Shown: one piece after another, positions 4,700 through 47,873 of the stretch | Layout: each line of letters starts with the position of its first letter | How positions within the stretch are numbered: position 1 is the first letter of the stretch | Assembly (NCBI GenBank): GCA_951406725.2 | Contig: OX597814.1 | Span: 92,070,001-92,134,000 of the forward strand | Length of the DNA: 64,000 bases | Direction: 5' to 3' | DNA from: Octopus vulgaris | Lineage: Eukaryota | Translations under genes and position numbers: made by a program | Notes under the pieces: generated by a model | Databases searched by the model: none | Told to the model about the DNA's origin: nothing | Seen by the model: only the letters and a program-made list of their open reading frames with translations

Positions 4700-5670
4700 A
4701 TTCAAGCACAGCAGTGATTGAAACAAAGGGCATGTGTTAAAGCATTGTCCCGGTGAAACACGACACATTTTATAAGTTTTCCTGGGCGTTTAGTCTTGAT
4801 AACCTTTTGTAACTGTCTCAGCAAGTTGTCATAGGTTGTCATGGTATTCTCCATTGATGGTGTGGTCCTTTCAAATGTAGCCAACAAGCACAATGCCTTT
4901 TGCATCCCTAAAACTGAGGCTATCACCTTCCCTGCAGATGAAACTACCATGGTTTAGTTTGGAACAAGTGGGGGGGTCCACATCATAGATAGTTTCTTTG
5001 TCTGTGGCTCAAACTCATAATCCCAACACTCACGCTGGCTTAGTAAACCTTCAAAGCAACCAGCAAGATCTAAATCAAATAATGTCAAACTTTCCAGTAA
5101 AGTAATAATTCTAGAACGATTTTGATCAGATATCAGAAGAAATGGCGAGCAGAAACTTTGTTTTGCCAATTTAATTGTGCAGAATATTCTCACAGGATAT
5201 TTTAATAGCATTGGCTATTTGATTTATATTCAATCGCCTGTCATGCATCACCATGTGTGAAGAGAATGAATGTTTTCTTCGGTGGTGACAGTTGCAGGAC
5301 GTCTAAATCGTGGGCCAACTTCAAAACTCTACCTTCCCCTCCTAAATTCAGCTGCCTACTTTTGCACTATTGATAATGCTGGAGCGTCAGCCTCTGATTT
5401 AGCAACTGTGTCAGCATGAATGTTCTTGCGGACAAATACCTTTTTGTCCTGCAGGCACTTGATAACAACACGATGCCAAATTTTGTCGATTTTCAAGAGA
5501 AGTTTCTACTAGTTGCTCTCGAAGTCTTCTTTGCAAGGTCAGATGTCAATTTACCTGAAACGAAACAATACATTTATTAATAAAAAGGATTGAAATTAAT
5601 GCACGAAAGATTTCACATCTCTAATACCATTCCTTCATAGTTTACTTATGAAATTTTCAGCAACCCTTGT
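4700..5670 (-). mobile_element. Decayed mariner (DD34D) transposon, 3'-truncated
   Basis: Minus-strand 'SAGKVIASV', 'KTKRPGKLIKCVVFHRDNA' and 'YEFEPQTKKLSMMW'; TIR-like end 'gaaattttcagcaacccttgta' at ~5650-5671. Confidence 0.85.
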
Positions 5671-5729
5671 ATGTGCGTTTATGTATACATGCGCGTATGT
5701 GTGTGTGTGCATGCGTATATGTGTAGGAG

Positions 5730-6130
5730 AGGGTTCTTTTCTGTGTGTTATATTGTGTGCATATGCAAATATCATGCGGTAAATACTACCTTAATCCTCA
5801 ATGAATGTACAGAGGTCAATACATGCCATATATTTCGTTCATCCTTAGACAACTTCAATAGAAGTGATAAATGTATGAAAACAAAACATTCTCACTCTCT
5901 GAGCTCTCATCTTTCAAAGATGTATTTTGTTTTATTGTTTTTCTTTGTTACTTATGGCCTATTTATTTCATTCTACTTTATTGTATCCTATTCGGTTCAT
6001 CGCTTAACCTTTATTGTTTTCATTTTCCCCTCTGATGTATTTTATAGTGCTGACCTATTCTTATGTATGTCGCCTTGACGATACAACCTCTTGACGTAAA
6101 CTATGTTATATTTGCCTGGAGATAAAATTC
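5730..6130 (+). mobile_element. Possible Penelope-like 3' end remnant
   Basis: 'CYIVC...LILNECTEVNTCH' weakly resembles the PLE C-terminal CxLC...LNxRxE...CxH motif and is followed by a T-rich UTR-like tract. Confidence 0.3.
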
Positions 6131-7536
6131 TTATTTCTAGTTATTATTGTTTTAGGTATTATTATTATTTTTTTCTTATTTTCTTCTTACTCTTTGAAAC
6201 GCCATTCATGAATATATCATAAGAAAGGTGCTTTGACGAAATGTATTTCAACATATTATTTGAAGTTATACATGGTGATCGATTTTATATGCATCAATTA
6301 TTGATTACCCACTACTGAAATGATCGTAATGAAATACCTGAATACCAGCTCTTTGTTTTCTGGTTGTTCTTTTGAAGTATATGATTCTCTACTATCTATG
6401 TAAGAAGCCCAATCCTTATTGATGCTCCATCGATAGCATTATTTCGATGTGACAGTTTAATCTAGCTGAAATTCTAACCTCAAAAACTCCAACGATAATC
6501 TTTCATACATTTAACGCATCTGTATACACATGTGTGCGTACGTATGTGCACGTGTATGTATGCATGTATGTAAATATTTAAGTAAAACTTGAATGCATAT
6601 GCATGTATGTGTGGATCTGTGTGCTTTGCAGTTGTGTGTGTCTTTATTTGTATTTTTGCTTGTGTTGCTGTATTCGTAAGTATTGAAGGTAGCCAAATAT
6701 GAGACACAGGTAGATCATTCTTTATTACCAAACATTCAAAGCATGATCTATGTAATTATACAACATGTATACTTACATTCAGTGTACATACTATTTTGCA
6801 ACAATGCTTAGTATTAAAAAAAAATACACATCCTGTTTTTGTCTGAATCGAATGCATCCATTATTTCATAAATATTATTGATGTAATTTAACAAAGTCAA
6901 TATTTCTTTACAAGAGAATTAAGTTGTCTCTACCTGTTTTAAGTGGAATAGCAAGCGAAGCAACCATGAACTTTTCGTAGGCCTTTGAGACCGGTTGGTG
7001 TAAAATAAAAAAAAAATCCTCAGACTGAATCCTTTAAAAGTAACCCGCTTTCGGGTGATAATATTTGTGAGATAATTATTTACAAGGATAGTCGGGGTTT
7101 TGTACAAGATAGGATAATTATTTTCGTCAATATTCAGCATTCGAGTTGACATGTCAAGCACGATTTACATTTTGATGCGAAAGTTTCAGAGATAATTTCG
7201 AATTTAAATATCTGTTACTAATTTGCAAAATATGATTTTCCAATTTTATGCTTGCATAATTAGCCTTCCACTCAGTCATTACATTAATGCTACGTGAGGC
7301 GCTAATGAGATTTCTAGAAGTTTTTGCGAATTTAATATCTCTTAAAGCCACCATGTCACTTTATATGACTTTCCCCGTTACTTTCGTCAATAAGTAATAT
7401 AAACTATGAACTACGTTATTAAAATAGGAATGTTTTGTATTATATATTTTATTTCCTAAGTATCTACCGATTAATTTAATATGAAAGATTTTCAATAATT
7501 TTGTTAATGAAATAGCCTTTTTGAGACCGTAGGAAA

Positions 7537-8031
<495 letters not shown>

Positions 8032-8542
8032 AAATTGCCCTGATGCAGTACCAGGCAGTGACCGCTCATGGCTTCTGATATTAACTGATTGGAAGTATAT
8101 CCATGTACATTGTTTTGTCTTGGTATAAAAGATGCGCTACAGCAAATATTCTGTTTGACCTTAACCAGTTCAGCATGTCCCTTAGTGGCTGACGATATGT
8201 GCATCTCTGATCAAGAGCATCATAGCCATATGTTGAGTTGGATTCTTTGGGGTTTGAATAATTCACCCCTGGAAACATAGGTGTTTCGTTCAACATTCTT
8301 AACCCTTATTCAGGGACATTTTGAGCGGGATGTGGTTATTCGATCAGTAGAAAATTCTAACTTGGCCCCACCTGCAAGGTCATGTGCTGTTTATCTTGAT
8401 ATGAGATTACCATGTCACGCACATATGGTTGTGATGCATGTGCCTAGTGTACTCTTATCAGACGAGTAGTCATGATGGGTATACTGGGCTTCGTATATTT
8501 TATCCTAGTGTCACTTTGATGGCATGCACTGAACTCTCACTC
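8032..8542 (+). mobile_element. Non-coding ~510-560 bp microsatellite-associated element, copy 1
   Basis: Starts 'aaattgccctgatgcagtaccaggcagtg' and ends 'ctctcactc(aat)n'; alignable with 29381-29941 and 39680-40236(-). Confidence 0.9.
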
Positions 8543-9147: not shown

Positions 9148-10165
9148 CGTCTACAGTAGACGAACCCGAACAAGGTCCAGTAAGTGAAACAAATACGTTG
9201 AACTGGCGGGGATACGGAGTCGAAGTGTGGCTTGTCGCCACAACTGAAGACATCGAGAGGATCCCCTTCCAGATCGAGGTTGAGAATGAAATGACATAAA
9301 CGTTGTAGTCGAGGGAAGGAGACCTAATTGCTATCTATGCGGAGCTCGAGGACACAGAAGGACTGCGTGTCCCTTATATGAATTCTCACAAAGCGAAGAG
9401 ACAACGGAAAAGGAACAGAAGAAAGAGCAAAAGAAAGAACAGATGCAGGAGAAAGTACAAACAGGAGGACAAAGATTAGACAAGAACAGTACACAGAAAG
9501 AGAAAGACAACAAGAAAGGAGAAATGGAGAAATCAAAGGAGGTGAGCAAAGGAGCTACTAGTTCCAAAAGTAGAAAGATATCGAGGACGAGGGAACGCTC
9601 AGAAGAAAAAAAGTTAACGATCCGTTTAAATTTTATGGAACACTTATAATATACAAAAGTACTTATGAAATAGAGAAAAAAAGATCGAAAATGAAGGGAG
9701 TAAAGATGGGAGCCAATTTTGATGAAGATGAGATCTGTGTTTTGGTACATGCGGATAGTCACGTCAATTTCATCGAGATCATCAAAGAGAACATGATACT
9801 GGACAATAGGTGTCGGTTAATGGAATGCCCACCTCACATATTGGATTTTAAGGAACTGGAAAAAATACAGTATATTTGAAATTCATTTATGAAAAAGTGG
9901 AAAAAACTGTGGAAAATTTCTATGTCAATTTGTGTGAAATTCATTTGAAATTTTTTGTGAAATTCATTTATGAAAAAAGAAAAAGACTGTCGAAATGTAA
10001 CCACTCGAATTCGGGGGTCGAGTAGGCATTGCGCTTCATTATTATATCTTTTCATATTTCATTTGTTTACTTTAATTTTTTGTATTAATTCATCCTCTTT
10101 TGTATTTTAAGTTCCCCGATTATGCTGTCCCATCAATGTATAGTCCCATGGGGATAATAAAAAAT
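9148..10165 (+). mobile_element. 5'-truncated Tx1/L1-like ORF1 (CCHC zinc knuckle) plus 3' UTR, no RT
   Basis: 'VVVEGRRPNCYLCGARGHRRTAC' (CX2CX4HX4C, 9329-9370), then a charged linker, then a 3' end 'cccatggggataataaaaaatc'. Confidence 0.7.
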
Positions 10166-10362: not shown

Positions 10363-12505
10363 AAGAAACAGTGGAGCATCATGCGCTGGTTAATGGAGTC
10401 ACAATAAAAACACTGGTTATTGCGCAACCTGTTAATCGCTACCTCATTTGGTGACAATGAAAAAACGAATTATTGTAATGAAACAGAAGCCTATGATGGT
10501 GACAATGTTACACCCGGCAGGCTCAGAGATTCTGGTCCGGCTGTACCCTGTCGATATCCACAAAGGGATCACCACACACGGTGTATATGGAACAAGCAAA
10601 CTAATGCTGTGGTTATGGAGTGTTACTATCTGAGCAGCCCGGTAGATGAAAATGATGCTCAAATTAGAGGTTACCGACAACGTATGTATGATCATTGGAG
10701 AGAAAATGGATTGTTTCAACTCACGGAACAGAGACTGTGATCAAGCTAGAGGAATAAGAAAAATTGTTGGTTCACTGAAGTAGAGCTTGAAGCTATCAAA
10801 AGACGGATCGTGGAAAATAGCAGCAGAAATAACAATGACGATGCAGTTCTTACTAATAAGAGCAATCTCATAGCACAGGAAAGGAGCAGCGGTAGTTTAC
10901 TTGATGAGAGACATATAGATGATCTAAAAGAGACAATAAAGCTAATGGTGTCATGGCAGATAAACAGAAGGCAATCTACAACAGAATAAAGGTGAGAATA
11001 CAGGAGAACGATAGTGACATTATTTGCAACCTTACAAAGGTCGATCGAGAGAAATTGAACCAAGAAATGAAAAATGTCAATGAAATTCTGAAATACATCA
11101 GAACAAACATCACAGAAACAAAATGTTGATCAAGGAAGCAAGTATTGTTGTAGCAGAAAACGAGGGTATTGATGTCAAGTAAAAGAAATATAATGGGAAT
11201 GACAAAAGAAACGATCAATGGTGGAAAAGAAGAATCAAGGCAAGGTTAGACATGCTCTCGAAGGAAATCTCTGTGTTACACCGAAAAGAGAAAGAGAAGC
11301 TTAAATGCCAACAATAAATAAAGGGTGCTAAAAAAGTATAATATAGAAAGAAAGGGCCTCAAAGCAAAGATGGTAAGATACAACCGAAGAATGAAAGGTT
11401 GCCACCAGAATAGGTTATTCAGAGTAGAACGGAAGAGATTCTATAAAGAAGTAAATGGACAGTATACAGATGAAAAGTTGATACCAGATAACAATGAAAG
11501 TCAAATGTTTTGGAGTGACATTTTGAGCAAAGACAAGGAGCACAAGAAGGATGCTGAATGGTTGCAAGAACAGAAACAAACAGTAGTCTGTCCAAAATAA
11601 GCAGAACTAGTCATTTCGGTTAGGGAAGTGAAGGAAATCAGCTAAACAATTAGCAACTGGAAGGCCCGGGACCAGATGCAGTTCAAGCCTACTGGATCAA
11701 AAGATTTGGTGAATGTCATGCACGAATAGATGCGCAACTCAACACCTTGTTAAATGCCGACCAAGTAATACCAGAGTGGTTGACATTGGGTAGGACAGTG
11801 TTGTGCTTGAAAACATCGAAAAAGGCAGTACGGTAGACAATTACATGCCTATATCCTGTTTGCCGCTTATGTGGAAGTTATTGACTGGAATACTCGCAGG
11901 GGTCAATATACGAACATCTGGAAAAAAATGGAGTCCTGATACATGAGCAAAAGGGTTGCAAGCGTAAGTGCAGAGGTACTAAGGATCAACTCCTGATAGA
12001 CAAAACTGTACTTAGAGACTGCAAGAGGAGGAAAAGTAACTTATCCATATCATGTATCGATTATCGTAAGGCGTACGATATGATCCCACATTCTTGGATT
12101 ATGGAGTGTATGAACTTGAATGTTGAGCGATTGCTTGGAAAAAGTATGGCAAATTGGAGGACGGACTTGACAGCACACGGAAGAAGTTTAGGGAGAGTAG
12201 AAATTGGGAGAGGCATCTTCCAAGAGTACTACTTCTCCCCACTGATCTTTGTACTGTGCTTTATACCAATAACACTGATTCTGAGGAAAGCAAAATCTGG
12301 GTATGTATTCAAAAGCCTCCAACCAAAAGTCAACAATTTGTTATTCATGGATGACCACAAACTTTATGGTAAAGATGAAGCCCAAGTCAGTTCCCTCGTT
12401 GATACGGTGTATACCTTCAGTGCTGATATCAGAATGGAGTTTTGACTGAGAAAGTGTAGTGTTAGTCTTGAAGAGAGACAGAATTAAATGTATGGACAGA
12501 ATCAA
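10359..12505 (+). mobile_element. R4/Dong-clade non-LTR retrotransposon, decayed, 3'-truncated
   Basis: N-terminal 'VMECYYLS...GYRQRMYDHW...LTEQRL' typical of R4/Dong; RT motifs '[15 protein letters not shown]', 'RGIFQ...SPLIFVL' and 'LLFMDD.KLY'. Begins directly after (TAA)n, the known Dong target. Confidence 0.9.
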
Positions 12506-26164: not shown

Positions 26165-26244
26165 GCATTAGTTATGGGACAACCCAACACATACACACAT
26201 ACACACACGTGTGTGTGTGTGTTGGGTCGTCCCATAAATAATGC
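26165..26244. repeat. ~80-bp palindrome of two mariner-like TIR ends around a CA/TG core
   Basis: gcattagttatgggacaacccaacac...gtgttgggtcgtcccataaataatgc. Confidence 0.75.
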
Positions 26245-26369: not shown

Positions 26370-26590
26370 AAATGTGACCGCGTGTGTACCGTTGGCGATT
26401 TTTTCCTCCGTCTTCTCTTCTTTGGATCTTTTCTTTTCCTATGTTTCTGACGAAAGCTCCGCTCGAAACGTTAAGATCTCTTTATTTCCTTCTTTCCTGA
26501 GCGTCCAATAATACTATACTTGTTCCACGTCCTCGCGTTGTTTTGTTTTCTCTTTGTGTTTTCATGTTTGGATTAACTATACATATACAT
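26370..26590 (+). mobile_element. PLE terminal-repeat-like fragment with minimal hammerhead
   Basis: gttt-ctgacga-a-agc-tcc-gct-c-gaaacgtt/aag (26443-26475); its flank 'ttcctgagcgt' is shared with the 22819 copy. Confidence 0.6.
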
Positions 26591-29380: not shown

Positions 29381-29941
29381 AAATGCCCTGATGCAGTACT
29401 GGGCAGTGGCTCTCGTGGCTTCAGATCTTAACTGGTTGGAAGTGTTATCATGTACATTGTTTTGTTTTGGTATGAAAGATGGGCTACAGCAAATATTCTG
29501 CTCAATACCACAGATTTGCTTGTTAGTTGTTTGACCGTAACCACTTGAGCATGTCCCTTAGTGACAGACGATATGTGCATCTCTGATCACGAGCAGAAAT
29601 AGTGGGGGAGCATCATAGCCATGTGTTGAGAGGGATTCTTTGGGGTTTGAATAATTCACCTCTGGAAACATGGGTGTTTCGTTCACCATCCTTAAACAAA
29701 CCTTATTCAGGGACCTTTTGAGCGGGATGGGCTACTCGACCTGAAGAAAATTAAATTTTAACTGGGTCTCTTCTGCAAGGTCATGTGCTGTTTATCTTGA
29801 TATGAGATCACCATGTCGCGCACATATGGTTGTGATGCATGTACATCACAAGCATATCAGACGGGTTGTCATGATGGGTATGCTGGGCTTCGTATAATTT
29901 ACCCCAGTGTCACTTTGATGGCATGCACTGCACTCTCACTC
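29381..29941 (+). mobile_element. Non-coding microsatellite-associated element, copy 2
   Basis: Same ends as copy 1; flanked by (AAC)n(AAT)n and aat repeats. Confidence 0.9.
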
Positions 29942-34289: not shown

Positions 34290-35892
34290 GGAACCGTTTC
34301 CCAGCGTGCGTAGTGGGAACGTACAACTCTGAAGATAAAAACCATACAGGTGGGTAGAGGATAAGAGGGAAACCCATGCTTCAAAAATCTTCTCAGTCGG
34401 TTTCAGTTGGCAGATAGGTACAGACTAGATGTTCGAGACGCTCCATTGTGGACATGGATTAATAGCGATGAGTAACTACATCTTATTTAGACAGGATTCC
34501 AATTCGAGAAATAGACAAAAAACTAGTTAGTCGTCCACAATTTCACTATGTCAGCTACAGTGATCACAAAGTTGTGACCTGTAGGCTGGATTTAGATAAG
34601 CTACGTGGACAAAGATCTGGTTACTGGAAACTCAATATATTTTTTTGCTCATAAGGAGTACGGGAGTCGGATTAGGCAGTTAGTGTTGGGGGCATTGTGT
34701 GGAGCAATTATTAACAACACATGATGTTATGCCCTCGAAAGAGCCATAAAATTTCAGTCTATATAGCAAAGTGTTAGTGACTAAGAAAAATAGAGTAGAA
34801 AGGGCTTTAGTTAGGACCCCAGATGAAGCACTTGAATCTGGCTAGGTACCACTAGTTTAGCTGCGAGATTGGCTCTTAAACATCACCGCGAGGCTAAAAA
34901 TGTATAGTCAGGGCTAAGCAATGTACAATGGAATCAAAGGTGCTGGATGGGCCCGTATGATAAAGACCCTACGTGGCAATAATGGCACAATAAGGTATAT
35001 GACTAATCATCAAGGGAACCCAACGAACCCAAGGAAATATGTAAGGTCTTTCAGGAGCACTTGGCCTTGTTTTTCGGAAGGGCAGCGAGCCGGAGTAATA
35101 GGGGGAATTCGCGGGCTTCCTCACCGGTGTACCGCGTCTCTCGTGGTGACAAGCCAAGCGGAGTGCTGAGACGGGCTGATCATAGCTGCGGAGGTGGAGG
35201 ATGATTTGTCGAACTGCAGCGAAGACAAGTCGCCGGGGCTAGATGGTCTCCTCTACGAGCTTTATTACAGTATGCCAGACTTGTTTGGGCACCTACTGGC
35301 ATGCGTCTTCACAAACTGGCAGCAGAATTGGTGTGTGAACCGGGGAGTTGTGACACTGCTTAGAAAGGATCCAAACAAGGAGGATATTATAGATGATTTC
35401 CGGTCCATCACTCTACTTAATGCAGAGTTGAATATTTTAGCCAAGGTGGTAGCAAAATGTTGGCGCGTGTCGTGGGTGGACTCGTTGGGAAGGCACAAAC
35501 TTGTGCCGTTCCTAGCAGATCCATACACGACAATCTCCACCTTTTACGCTGCATCTTACAGAAGGTTAACGGGTTCTCCTAGCAAGGATGGGGATCTTGC
35601 CCATTTAGACTAGTCTAAAGCTTTTGACTGGGTTCATCATTGGTATCTCGTGTCAGTCCTCGCGGAGTTCGAAAAAAATTGATCTCAATAATTATGCAGA
35701 GTTAGGTGAATGATCCTGCGCGTCAGGGTCACTCACCTACCTCAGAACTGGTCTGAGCAGTGGTTATCTCTGAAAGGAAGAGTGGAGGTCGCAGAGGTGT
35801 TTATCGCTTCTTTGTTTACCTACCGCCTAATCGTCGTGCCTTGCTCCCATTCGTGGTGGATGAAGTTGGAGCGTCTGCTCTTTCGCTTCTTT
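34290..35892 (+). mobile_element. Tx1/L1-like LINE ORF2 fragment (APE end + RT), internally deleted
   Basis: 'SYLDRI', 'YSDHKVV', 'GYWKLN', 'KSPGLDGL.YELY', 'FRSITLLNAELNILAKV', 'LD*SKAFD' and 'WLSLKGRVEV'. Confidence 0.85.
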
Positions 35893-37872: not shown

Positions 37873-39397
37873 ATTTTCTAAATTAAATGCATCTAATTAA
37901 TGCAAGACTATCTAGCCTTATTGCTGGCATCGGTGTCCTTTATATATTGATATATGATGCTATATCTTTCTATTTCTGTTACTAAATGGCATAGCTATCT
38001 ACTAGAAAAGACAAACTTTTTTAAAATAGCGATTCCATTTAATCAATTATTATTTTACAAGCAATTTATATTTTTAAAATATTATTAATGTCATCCTAGT
38101 TGAGATATAAATAGCATACGAAAAATAGATTTATTCTCAATCAGAAATTATATGGATTAATATAAATATATCATTCATTTACTTGCTGGTGCATTGGGCT
38201 TCAAGTGTATATTTATATAATGTATTTTGTACAGTGTATCAAATATACATTTCCAGGATTAGAAATGTTGAAAAAGCGCCAGAAAATTTGAGGTTTTTAC
38301 ATATGAAAGAGCGCAGTCTTATTTCACACCAGTATTATCACTTGCAATGATCTAGGTTAATGCCTAACTGCAAGCAGAAGGAATGTCGGAGTGCTATTTG
38401 AAAACACTATCATCCATCCTACATTTATAACCTCTGAATAGCAGTGACATCATAAACAAGGTGCTCGGGCTGCCGCAGTAAATAATTTCGCAACAACTGG
38501 AGGACAGATACTTCACTACTGTACAGTTACACCATTGCCAAGGATTAGCATAACTTTCAGGTTAATCTGTTTCCAGTATATCCATAATATTCCTTATGTA
38601 GACCACTATATAGTGTATCGCTCTTTCCAAGGATCATCGTCTCACTCCTGTTAACCTCCTTTAGAGGAGTTCACCTGATTCATAAACGCAATCATTTTCT
38701 GTTGTAAAAGTGCCGTGCCAAGAGTTTTAGCAAAATGGCGTAAAATATAAGGGGAAATAAAATTATAAAATAACAAACATCATTATATCAATCTGTATTC
38801 TTTAAACATTGCAATTTTCATCATAGTACTCTTTACACATCACTTCAAATGTATATCTTACATTCTCTTGCTTTTTCTCTCATTTGGTAAAATTTGCGTT
38901 TTAAAGAAATCATTTTGTCTATAAAAGTATATTCACGGTAGAGATTTTGAACAAAGAATGATATAATTTTATATTGATATTAATATAGAAAGATATCTTT
39001 CACCATTTGTTGAACGCTGGGAAGTAGAAAGATATGTATTAATAATTGGAAATGGTATTCCTCCTTATATTTTTCTATTGAATTATTGCACCAAAATCTT
39101 TCTAGTGCCGCTATTGAACGCATTGTTTTGTCAACATCTAATGGTGGTTTTCCAATTTATTTAATTCTTCGTAATAATGGTTTAAAATTATCTTAAAGAA
39201 CATTACACAAACTTGTATAATTGTTTGTGGTTTTCCTAAAGCAATCTTTGATTAGCTCCAAATTTGTTAATATATTATGACGCAGACATTGCTGACTTAT
39301 TTGCTTTTCAAGACATGCAATTATTTGAAACTTTAATTTAAAGTTCTTAAAAATCATTCAAATTTTATTTTCTTACTTTCCAAAATAAATGCTTAAA

Positions 39398-39679
<282 letters not shown>

Positions 39680-40232
39680 GAGTGAGAGAGCAGTTCATGC
39701 CATCAAAGTGACACTGGGGTAAATTATACGAAGCCCAATATACCCATCATGACTACCCGTCTGATAAGGGTACACCAGGCACATGCTTCACAACCATATG
39801 TGCGCGACATGGTGATCTCATATCAAGATAAACAGCACATGACCTTGCAGGTGGGGCCCAGTTAGAATTTTCTTCAGGTTGAGTAGCCCATCCCGCTCAA
39901 ACGGTCCCTGAATAAGGGTTGTTTAAGGATGTTGAAAGAACCACCCATGTTTCCAGAGGTGAACTATTCAAACCCCAAAGAATCCCTCTCAACACATGGC
40001 TATGATGCTCCACCACTACTTCTGCTCGTGATCAGAGATGCACATATCGTCAGCCACTAAGAGACATGCTCAACTGGTTACGGTCAAACAACTGACAAGC
40101 AAATCTGTGGTATTGAGCAGAATATTTGCTGTAGCCCATCTTTTATACCAAGACAAAACAATGTACATGATAACACTTCCAATCAGTTAAGATCAGAAGC
40201 CATGAGAGCCACTGCCTGGTACTGCATCAGGG

Positions 40233-40236
<4 letters not shown>
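39680..40236 (-). mobile_element. Non-coding microsatellite-associated element, copy 3
   Basis: Reverse complement of copy 2; (ATT)n on both sides. Confidence 0.9.
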
Positions 40237-40272
<36 letters not shown>

Positions 40273-40277
40273 GCCAT

Positions 40278-40348
40278 GGGCATATGGCGTAGTGGTTAAG
40301 AGCGCGGGCTTCTAATCCCAAGATTCCGAGTTCGATTCCAGGCAGTGT

Positions 40349-40350
<2 letters not shown>
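40278..40350 (+). pseudogene. tRNA-Arg(TCT)-derived Pol III head (not a functional tRNA)
   Basis: A box TGGCGTAGTGG (40285-40295), loop CT-TCT-AA (40309-40315), B box GTTCGATTCC (40330-40339). The anticodon and T stems each carry 2 mismatches. Confidence 0.75.
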
Positions 40351-40407
<57 letters not shown>

Positions 40408-40455
40408 TCGAAAAATTTCTTAGGGATGATAAACCAGGTTCTAAATTTCCCCGAT

Positions 40456-40500
40456 ACACCTGATGAAGGCTGGAGGGTATATCAGCTGAAACGTTGTGTT
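40456..40500 (+). ncRNA. Minimal type I hammerhead ribozyme with intact core
   Basis: acac-CTGATGA-a-ggctg-gagggtatat-cagct-GAAA-cgtt/gtgt: stem I acac:gtgt, 5-bp stem II, palindromic stem III aacgtt, GUU cleavage triplet. Confidence 0.75.
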
Positions 40501-40784
40501 AACAACAAACAAGATGAGGACAAATATCTGTCAAATGTAAATAATGTAAATAATGTACATAATTCCTCATCTCTTAAATATAGAACTGAAATACTTAAAA
40601 GTTGAGCTCCATGATAAATATCATTATCAGCAATATTAATCTCATAACCTCTCTCTTAATGAAATTACTACGGATTGTGTTACAACCGGTGATAATTGAA
40701 CGTTCATTGTTAAATTATACACTGAGCCTATTTGCCCCTGGCTAAATATATCCAATGTACGATCTATATATGCAAATGGTGCGA

Positions 40785-41320
40785 GTACACCTAACTTGAC
40801 GTATTGCTTACTAGCTTATTGCTGGTGTATGAGGGCCCATCAAAAGGTGATGACAGCGTCGATACAGGACATTTATCCTCCTCCGTCTCCAGCACATTCT
40901 TTCCTATGGGAGCGGACGTGGCTGACGTGATCGATACGAGACAAGGACATATCATATTGTCGAGCGCACAGAAAATGACCCAGAACAAAAGCCTCAGAGG
41001 TTTGATTACGACGTCTCCTCCTCTCTTCATGCAGTCTCCTGCATTCGCTTTCAAAGCACTCTGTTCCAGCATCACACATGTACTTCCATGACTTCCGATC
41101 AATAACCAACCGATTGGGAGGGACACAGGATAAAATGTGGGACCGCTTGAGATAATCATGAAAACTAAGTTTTGGACGTCCACGAGGTCTACATCCAGTC
41201 CCGTTCTTGCTGAAGAGCACCGTCTTTGGGAGCCGGTTACTCGGCATCTGAATTACATCATCAACCCAGCGGAGAATACGACGAAGGAAGCAAACATAAT
41301 AACAAAAGCACACGTTCAGT
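40785..41320 (-). mobile_element. RTE-clade LINE 3' end
   Basis: 'LRWVDDVIQMPSNRLPKTVLFS...RPRGRPKLSFHDYLK' and a terminal C2H2-like 'SRIDHVSHVRSH'. Confidence 0.8.
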
Positions 41321-42397
41321 AATTTCAAATAGTATCCACCCAAAAGATAATAATATCTAATTCAAACTTCTTTGCCATATTCCATAATCTTATTCCCTTT
41401 AACCTTTACTCCCCCTTATTAAGTTTTCTTTTGTTTATCAGTGTGCACAATATTTTATATATACTTATAACTGTGAGTATGGGTTTATTGTAGCGTGTTA
41501 ATGTCTGTCAATGTTTTGGGAGGTATGTGATCCTCTATATGTGAACGAACGTCTGTTTATATTTATAATTCTAGATCGATAAAGTCCTGTAAAACATACT
41601 TAAGTATCTGTATGCGTTTAGTGAGTTATAGTGAGTTTACAAATCTAGTTTTTAGTTCTTTCAAACAATTTCTTCCCATTACCTAATGATCATTTAGCTA
41701 AACTTTCTTTTACTTCCTTTTCTTTTTCTTCTGGTTTTTCTTTCATTTCTTTCCCCTTCACAATCTTACTATACTTCATTTCCATCTATCACAATATCTA
41801 GCTTGTTCCGACAAAACGTTATTTTAAATTCCAAGCACCCATTGTTCGTGTGTAAATATTTTGTGAATGAACGTAATCTTTATGTGCTTAAGTAAGTGCT
41901 TAAGTAAGTGTTGTAACAGCTATGTGTTGGGGATCTATTGATGTTTGGGGATGCGTATGCTCTTGTATATATCAATGATAGTTTGTGAGTATTAGTATGT
42001 CAACGTTAGCGTATAATTTAGTAAACGTTTGGTTCTAAGTCGTTACCACATGATTCTGTACGAGTAAATATTTAGAGATATCTATGCATGTGTGTAAGTA
42101 TATTTCAGAATATGTATGTATGTTGGTATGTATGTATGTGTGTATATGTATATATATATATATATATATAATATCTTATGTAGGTATATATTAATATATA
42201 TATGTATATATGTAAGTGTTTGTTTTTTGATGAGTATGTATTGGTATATGTTTGTGTTTTTGTATGAATTTAAGGTTTATATTTACACGTCACATGTTTT
42301 AGCATGAACGCCTGTATCCATATAAATACGTTACGTTTTGTAGGACTTTCTCTTTCGGTTAACATGTTTTTTTTTCTATGAGTTTCTTATCATAAAC

Positions 42398-46479: not shown

Positions 46480-47873
46480 TGAGACGTAATACAGTTAAAA
46501 CGTTGGCGTTGCTTCAAGTGGTAGTGCATGTTTGCTTTGTTTCTGACTAAAAATAGATTTATCTTTTATTCCGTTTACCCTTTATTGACATTTGAAATGG
46601 ATAACCAGAAATATCATGTTCGCGTTATGAAGCTTTTCTTTTTAAAAAAAAAAAGAAAATGTTGAAAAGACATGCAAAAACACTCGTAAAGTTTATGGTG
46701 ATATTACTGTAGGTGAATCAAGTCTTGGAAAGTGGTTTGCAAAATTTAAAGTTGCAGAGCGGAGCTTGGAAAATGACAGTCGCAGTGGAATACCTTCAAA
46801 ATTGGATGAAGATGCTTTGAAGACAAAATTCGAAGAAAACTCAAATATCACGACTAGAGAATTTGCAGAGGAGTTGGAAGTTTCTAAAAGTGCGGCTCAT
46901 GAACACCTAGTGAAGCTAGGATACATGTCTAGGCTATAATGTATGGGTCGCTCGCAAACTCTCAGAAGGGAATTGCTTGGACCAGTATTCCGTTTGTGAT
47001 ATGCTTTGTTTGAAATAGTTTGTGACTGGAGATGAAAGATGGACTGAGTACGAAAACGTAGTGCGAAAAAGATCCTGGAGTTTGCGTAAGGATCCTTCCA
47101 AAATAGCAACCAAAGACGAACATCCATGCCAAAAACGCTATGCTTTGTGTTTCGTGGGTTCATGAAGGCATAATTTATTATGAGCTTCTCCTACAAAACC
47201 AGACCGTTAATTCTGATGTCTACTATCAGCTGACTAATTTGAACCAAAAATTAAAAGAATAGAGGCCGGAGATTGCCAACTGGAAAGGGGTTGTGTTCCA
47301 ATGCCAACAGAAAAGGGATAGTGTTCTAATGCCAACAGGAAAGGGGTAGTGTTCCAATGCCAACAGGAAAGGGGTAGTGTTCTAATGCCAACAGGAAAGG
47401 AGTTGTGTTCCAATGCCAACAGGAAAGGGGTAGTGTTCCAACGCCAACAGGAAAGGGGTAGTGTTCCAACGCCAACAGGAAAGGGGTAGTGTTCCAACAA
47501 GACAATGCCCGATCACATGTGTCTTTGACTACTCGAACAAAGTTACATGATCTTGGCTGGGATCTCTTACCCCATCCACCATATTCTCCTGATATTGCGC
47601 CATCCGACTACCACTTGTTTTTATCGTTACAGACTTTATTGGAAAAAAAGCATTAAGTGATTTAAATGAAGCCAAAATGCATCCAGATAACTTTTTTCTT
47701 AAAAACCAGTCAAATTTTATGCTAATGGAATATTTAAATTGCCTAATAGATGGGAAAATGTCATTAATAATAATGGAAATTATTTTATTAAATAAAATTT
47801 ATTGAAAGGTCAATTATTCATATCCCTTTTTGAATATTAAAAAAATACTTATAAACTTCAGGCCAACCTAATA
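46480..47873 (+). mobile_element. Decayed mariner (DD34D) transposon
   Basis: ATG at 46597 'MDNQKYHVR', 'IVTGDERW', 'FQQDNARSH' and 'HPPYSPDIAPSDYHLF'; right TIR 'aaacttcaggccaacctaata'. Left TIR not recognised. Confidence 0.9.
47275..47498 (+). repeat. 28-bp minisatellite x8 inside the mariner transposase
   Basis: Unit gccaacaggaaaggggtagtgttccaat starting at 47275, 47303, 47331, 47359, 47387, 47415, 47443 and 47471. Confidence 0.97.

Follow-up and report, generated by a model that had tools for sequence, protein, structure and literature searches.

A Penelope-like element of Octopus vulgaris with a tRNA-derived head in its pseudo-LTR, a probable source of SINE-like copies made through RNA polymerase III

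The window analyzed in this work, a stretch of 64,000 nucleotides of the Octopus vulgaris genome (contig OX597814.1, positions 92,070,001 to 92,134,000), contains a repeat unit in which a tRNA-derived head, an (AAT)n spacer and a minimal hammerhead follow each other. Good evidence identifies it as the pseudo-LTR of a Penelope-like element (PLE), with the head lying between the stop codon of the element's open reading frame (ORF) and the hammerhead. We furthermore consider it probable, at roughly 70%, that the PLE bears an endonuclease and that its short copies are reverse-transcribed from RNA polymerase III (Pol III) transcripts starting at the head. Since 5' ends cluster at the head start and the coding strand is poor in TTTT, the element likely spawns SINE-like copies by way of Pol III and may itself be transcribed by this enzyme. 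An earlier note on the same DNA had taken the unit for an independent, non-autonomous retrozyme; it is instead the repeat of an autonomous PLE.

Results

The unit and its surroundings in the window

The insertion consists of the following parts.

39387..39398, plus strand: left target-site duplication, 12 nt, one mismatch to the right copy
39398..39537, minus strand: inverted arm of the same insertion as the main unit, body positions 1-140, tail-less, hammerhead core damaged
39538..39679, minus strand: (AAT/AAC)n spacer of the inverted arm
39680..40234, strand unassigned: unrelated 555-nt repeat, inserted later inside the (AAT)n spacer
40235..40273, minus strand: remainder of the spacer and a few inverted head-start bases, forming a palindromic junction
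40274..40352, plus strand: tRNA-derived head, best match tRNA-Arg, likely Pol III promoter
40285-40295 and 40328-40339, plus strand: A box and B box, respectively, within the head
40353..40407, plus strand: (AAT)18 spacer, of varying length between copies and a landing place of other repeats
40408..40588, plus strand: pseudo-LTR body, a single open frame aligning with the N-terminus of the relative P0001
40456..40499, plus strand: minimal type I hammerhead with 4-bp stem I, 6-bp stem II and a palindromic ACGU replacing stem III
after 40495, plus strand: predicted hammerhead cut (GUU), in the order stem I/CUGAUGA/stem II/GAAA-CGUU
40512-40520 and 40564-40572, plus strand: inverted 9-nt arms closing a hairpin
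40557..40588, plus strand: 'tail' of 30-40 nt (body about 150-181), abutting the ORF 5' region in full-length copies
40589..40600, plus strand: right target-site duplication

The spacer, the hammerhead with intact core and the subsequent hairpin named in the earlier note are all present (40353-40407, 40456-40499 and 40512-40572), the hammerhead is minimal with a palindromic stem III as had been stated, and TTTT is indeed absent from the window unit. As to the tRNA-Arg(TCT)-like head, the A and B boxes and arginine as the best match were confirmed, while its start lies at 40274 and not at 40266 and TCT is a minority variant: the place of the 'anticodon' is taken by ACT in 41 and by TCT in 4 of 51 aligned heads. 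Among tRNAs from 30 fetched loci, which represent some isotypes only, tRNA-Arg(TCG) and tRNA-Arg(TCT) match the head best. Neither the window nor the consensus head yields a tRNA with ARAGORN; the heads no longer have a cloverleaf but retain intact A and B boxes. An Rfam search returned no hammerhead match.

What had been regarded as a second copy at 39398-39560 on the minus strand does contain a body (39398-39537, 89% identical to that on the plus strand). The 12-nt duplication encloses 39398-40588, however, and this 'second copy' is therefore the inverted arm of one and the same insertion, later separated from the head by the 555-nt repeat. The latter has three copies in the window (39680-40234, 29384-29941 and 8036-8542) and sits inside (AAT)n arrays in nearly all of the 14 copies seen. 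Throughout the family the spacer is often invaded by this repeat and by LINE 3' ends (L016, L017, L022, L046, L053). The headless bodies of L016, L017 and L022 were considered as a separate family, which was rejected because LINE-like 3' ends, presumably of the Dong/R4 type, sit in their spacers.

Elsewhere in the window we noticed eight tandem copies of a 28-nt repeat with 92% matches (47274-47497) and decayed frames at 11885-12445, 35170-35613 and 40873-41361, which we take to be pieces of LINE reverse transcriptases.

A dispersed family with linked head and hammerhead

In the searched genome (2.8 Gb, 227 contigs) we counted 4,598 exact matches to a 28-mer taken from the hammerhead and none to its reversed control, so that the unit represents a repeat family, as proposed before, and not a product of chance. 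The exact 28-mer is held by 22 of 86 sampled arms, from which about 18,000 arms are calculated. Arbitrary 10-kb tiles contained the family in 7 of 39 cases, with a Poisson range of 20,000-104,000 loci; no copy was found within 327 kb flanking GIY-YIG and tRNA loci, which favours the lower copy estimate. As a fair range we estimate ten to fifty thousand insertions. Copies diverge from each other by about 10%, and every copy seen is broken.

The suggested linkage of head and hammerhead holds true in the genome: in 24 of 29 head-anchored loci the head is followed by a body on the same strand, a further one has a fragment and four have none. The hammerhead core is conserved in the consensus, and a loose pattern finds it intact in 36 of 75 copies, 29 of which have CGT-T.

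Linkage to the coding region of a PLE

The identity of the autonomous partner follows from contiguous sequence, not from co-occurrence. A tblastn comparison of fetched loci revealed a reverse transcriptase (RT) fragment directly upstream of the unit in locus L029 and thereby the parent element. When 20 ORF 3' ends were fetched from the 39 other best matches to the L029 ORF end, 18 ran on into head and/or body about 25 nt past the stop codon; 7 of 10 RT-anchored loci likewise run on into head and/or body. At the opposite end, all 39 other loci matching the ORF start were fetched. Here the last base of the body adjoins the ORF 5' region, a forward body match reaches at least position 170 in 34 of the loci, and four are true tandems in which ORF end, head, body and ORF start succeed each other. 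Both element ends are present in L185. The order in long copies is ORF end, head, (AAT)n, hammerhead, tail and ORF start, and the pseudo-LTR body forms one open frame that continues into the ORF in full-length copies.

The ORF matches the RT domain PF00078 (E 2e-10) and is 55% identical to an 847-aa homolog, its best match. The translated hammerhead body, hammerhead codons among it, can be aligned to the N-terminus of this homolog with 53% identity over 80 aa. PF00078, PF28514 and PF26215 occur together in 47 of 51 homologs. On the C-terminal frame (L191) the Pfam GIY-YIG model finds no match; the frame shows a CxC..YxGxT.R...R..EH pattern that may represent the GIY-YIG endonuclease motif, and one member of the cluster of homolog P0002 is named GIY-YIG endonuclease. 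A zinc-finger-like linker between RT and endonuclease is present in the Neptune-type L092 and absent from the L194 frame and from P0001, and because this Neptune linker is missing the element is probably a member of the Penelope/Poseidon clade and not of Neptune, judging from the frames. None of the 10 RT-anchored loci contains an intact full-length ORF; this, taken together with the distance between copies, means that the family may be extinct.

A young Neptune-type PLE with a 781-aa ORF was rejected as partner as it has no 3' homology and a different hammerhead, and 20 further GIY-YIG loci likewise lack 3' homology. Intact 781-aa RT/GIY-YIG frames of the young element are numerous (L091-L094, e.g. 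G000:C17:42761500-42769000); it further has an upstream frame of 333-479 codons, a U3-A8 hammerhead variant and an upstream repeat that also shows a one-sided extension. In locus L113 a LINE-like element has an open frame of 3,438 nt, and a further divergent PLE fragment lies at 6410-7063.

Short copies are inserted in PLE fashion

PLE insertions are marked by 5'-truncated and inverted copies with a one-sided tail of 30-40 nt (PMC8557442), and the short copies of the octopus family were inserted in this fashion. Pairs are divergent in 36 cases, tandem in two and convergent in two, and the tandem arrays anticipated for a retrozyme did not appear; a hand count of the first 100 genome matches listed gave 12 divergent pairs, one tandem and no convergent pair. 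Of the two arms of a pair, one reaches about body position 181 while the other stops at about 140-156. In 33 of the 36 divergent pairs a single arm carries the tail, in three neither does and in none do both. As these body-anchored loci had been selected for one full arm, the count was repeated on 28 loci chosen by the hammerhead 28-mer only. An inverted piece is present in 18 of them, and the pairs in which both bodies are visible (n=15) have a single tail in 13 cases, none in two and two tails in no case. Short direct repeats flank the inverted pair as a whole: a duplication score of at least 9 was obtained for 22 of 33 insertions versus 1% of 1,056 mismatched flank pairs. Mobilisation by PLE machinery, which had been postulated, is supported by the ORF linkage and these insertion marks.

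5' ends of copies cluster at the tRNA-derived head

In the 28 unbiased loci the furthest 5' reach, counted by hand, falls between -6 and +1 of the head in 12 cases and at least 120 nt upstream in six, with none in between; the remaining loci end inside the head (five) or short of it (five). Exact 28-mers number 2,319 in the head, with a pattern that is degenerate at CpG, but no more than 592 immediately upstream of it, and by raw counts short copies outnumber ORF-linked ones about fourfold. The A and B boxes and the clustering of 5' ends make the Pol III promoter proposed for the head probable.

The same clustering could arise in an ordinary PLE whose 3' UTR had at some time received, as a passive passenger, a tRNA-derived SINE ending in (AAT)n. 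Transcription would then be by Pol II or by read-through, and the short copies would be 5'-truncated products that stopped or folded back at a hairpin at the head start. Indeed, a native 5-bp hairpin coincides with the head start, where RT stalling or fold-back could cluster 5' ends, and as 10 of the 12 loci beginning there are inverted insertions, fold-back is a live rival explanation. 5'-truncation and inverted copies are normal for PLEs (PMC8557442), and the promoter of Drosophila virilis Penelope is described as having Inr/DPE motifs (PMC2377424). Moreover, four of the 39 long copies are tandems that reach upstream beyond the head; a transcript started at the head would not yield these without template jumping, which counts for a passenger. 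On the other hand, the non-inverted copies L259, L272 and L101, the last with a 9-nt duplication, also begin at the head start, the boxes have been kept though the cloverleaf decayed, and the missing TTTT across the ORF is left unexplained. All in all, we judge a passive passenger to be unlikely and favour reverse transcription of Pol III transcripts started at the head.

Three raw RNA-seq runs, 6% of which was read, were mapped on copy L101. Each run yielded 5,500-7,600 family reads, equally from both strands, 80% of which run into unlike flanks, and no pile-up of starts or ends was seen among them. Joints to the opposite strand close to the hairpin probably stem from the alignment itself. 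Such reads agree with family sequence carried passively within longer transcripts, and they do not bear on short Pol III RNAs or on circles.

TTTT is rare on the coding strand

Four consecutive Ts stop Pol III in vertebrates, and the absence of TTTT from a full-length RNA made by this polymerase was predicted before counting. Five long copies, which are not independent of each other, contain three TTTT runs versus 21.5 expected, and the observed and expected numbers of the other runs in the same copies are 137/136 for A, 27/15 for C and 7/12 for G. In 11 long alignments we found none or one TTTT run each, apart from four in L185, and no run of five Ts. Between the repeats of the 2.7-kb coding strand no TTTT site is common to two copies, the 5' third being covered partly thinly by 3-6 copies; the TTTT in L185 proved to be private, being absent from five more copies and from L186. 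Codon shuffles gave P values of 0.01 for a 1,984-nt tiling and of 0.04, 0.11 and 0.31 for single copies, and dinucleotide shuffles values of 0.05-0.26 per copy. Other long frames of the same genome have 95 TTTT runs in 32 kb (partly redundant), and all 50 related PLE loci with at least 1.5 kb aligned carry TTTT, three of them a single one. At the mean rate of these relatives eight runs would be expected (P 3e-4), at the rate of the lowest relative only 1.4. The depletion is suggestive of Pol III transcription of the ORF. As a more tentative but quite possible extension, the PLE would be transcribed from end to end by Pol III, having captured a tRNA-derived promoter and purged its terminators, and would carry a built-in SINE that can be launched from each solo repeat.

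The hammerhead is predicted to cut as a dimer

The hammerhead is an inherited PLE motif with GUU as cleavage site and without a stem III in the monomer, and is predicted to cut only as a dimer. In the window copy the helices of the active fold amount to -9.3 kcal/mol versus -11.9 kcal/mol for the minimum free energy structure. Minimal hammerheads are described as often single or opposed at 100-700 bp and as having low activity even as dimers (PMC4209133), and 235 hammerhead hits are given for the giant squid (PMC6962438). The cut site is spanned by 16 of 34 upstream repeats, while one starts within 3 nt of it, which argues that the templates of the copies were mostly uncut or re-joined there. 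That the cut site forms the 5' end of full-length copies, an idea derived from L185 with its start at body position 92, was rejected as the 34 starts are scattered over positions 1-165.

These data also bear on an independent non-LTR retrozyme or SMalpha-like satellite that would be self-cleaving and spread via circular RNA. The combination of head and hammerhead resembles SMalpha (PMC6765202), a re-ligated circle would allow copies to span the cut site, and the core letters are conserved in the consensus. The family nevertheless forms no tandem arrays, the unit is part of a coding PLE, and copies end at the head start and at body positions 140-156 or 181 but not at the cut site. The three RNA runs, fragmented cDNA libraries that are weak evidence with regard to circles, likewise gave no sign of cleavage or circles: read ends did not pile up, and the joints that were displayed, 15 of 79, included no back-joint. 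We consider such a retrozyme very improbable.

Further hammerheads came to light in the loci. A second, unrelated minimal motif lies at 26447-26475 on the plus strand of the window with a palindromic junction upstream (26166-26243); similar copies in L023, L034, L108 and L154 likely constitute another PLE-derived family. A third family with a U3-A8 core, a GUC site and a longer stem I occurs in L101 (8675 and 9037, minus strand), L119 (7660, minus strand; 8144, plus strand), L079 and L107. It is arranged in tandem with 362-nt spacing in L101 and is a better retrozyme candidate than the pseudo-LTR unit. L129 contains at 9834-9873 a hammerhead-like core within a perfectly palindromic junction that reads the same on both strands.

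Discussion

The octopus element shares many traits with Penelope/Poseidon PLEs, that is D. virilis Penelope and Xena/Poseidon of fish, namely an ORF for RT, to which a putative C-terminal endonuclease is added in the octopus element, pseudo-LTRs in partial tandems, an inverted 5'-truncated arm, target-site duplications, a minimal type I hammerhead and a tail of 30-40 nt equal to the ORF start (PMC8557442, PMC2377424, PMC4209133). In D. virilis Penelope a 34-bp repeat is found both where the ORF begins and at the 3' end of the element (PMC2377424), a layout mirrored by the octopus body, which runs on into the ORF. In contrast to these elements, the pseudo-LTR of the octopus PLE includes a tRNA-derived A/B-box head as well as (AAT)n, the 5' ends of copies cluster at this head, and the coding strand is free of TTTT in the sense that no site is common to two copies. 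For the pseudo-LTR of D. virilis Penelope, a spliceosomal intron and a Pol II promoter are described (PMC2377424). Neither a head match nor a tRNA was found between stop codon and hammerhead in 80 related metagenome loci, many of which do not include enough downstream DNA. A tRNA-Leu-like sequence downstream of the related PLE L307 was discarded as it lies after the hammerhead within a separate repeat.

The promoter of Schistosoma SMalpha is tRNA-related. In SMalpha and Sj-alpha a Pol III-type promoter precedes a hammerhead just as in the octopus family, and they are described as tandem repeats with a cleaving ribozyme for which the accessible part of the source identifies no parent ORF (PMC6765202), whereas the octopus copies are dispersed inverted pairs or singles with a minimal hammerhead and correspond to the repeat of a protein-coding PLE. 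Animal non-LTR retrozymes also have a type I hammerhead, an origin from PLE pseudo-LTRs and short non-coding copies (PMC7761336; bioRxiv 10.64898/2026.07.22.740005). Their definition rests on tandem units and circular RNAs, and they reportedly lack promoters (PMC7761336), while the octopus family possesses a promoter-like head and forms no arrays. In the main text of bioRxiv 10.64898/2026.07.22.740005, so far as accessible, neither 'tRNA' nor 'promoter' occurs.

With tRNA-derived SINEs the octopus family has in common a tRNA-Arg-like A/B-box head, a length of about 300 nt, tens of thousands of copies and a 3' end shared with an autonomous partner, here seen from the ORF linkage. It differs from them in that this partner is a PLE and not a LINE, that the head is also part of the partner, that the microsatellite is internal and that insertions are often inverted pairs. 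The tRNA-derived octopus SINEs OK, OR1 and OR2 were reportedly described by Ohshima and Okada in 1994, and the family may or may not coincide with them. OR1 or OR2 is cited as a CORE-SINE (PMC4758252, PMC4824008). In the literature searched, which was accessible in part and did not comprise Repbase, Dfam, Ohshima and Okada 1994 and Lunse 2017, we came upon neither a PLE whose promoter is tRNA-derived or of the Pol III type nor, in the accessible portions of sources including PMC8969392, PMC3531059, PMC8967140 and PMC10886601, a SINE of cephalopods that bears a hammerhead. A catalogue entry for the repeat, as a Penelope or as a SINE and lacking the anatomy described here, may already exist.

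In the mechanism that we propose, TFIIIC and Pol III would recognise the A and B boxes of the head, the RT and endonuclease of the element would nick DNA at varied sites, and priming at the tail would lead to the insertion of one or two opposed cDNA arms. Any solo repeat whose head is intact would then be transcribed on its own and could amplify in SINE-like manner, dispensing with the tandem arrangement on which other PLEs depend for a promoter. The promoter of an upstream repeat could make the whole coding RNA.

One family would thus join three matters, the mobiliser of hammerhead-bearing SINE-like repeats, the escape of a PLE from the need for tandems and the origin of a SINE. Its estimated ten to fifty thousand insertions with clean junctions are a large natural data set on PLE inversion and the one-sided tail, both hitherto unexplained. 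Should the lack of TTTT be due to transcription of the ORF by Pol III, the element would provide a rare long coding Pol III RNA, and cap-independent translation as well as the role of the PLE hammerhead would become directly testable. Were Pol III indeed to transcribe the octopus element from end to end, the messenger would be a Pol III product whose first codons contain a hammerhead, and a SINE would have arisen inside its own autonomous partner.
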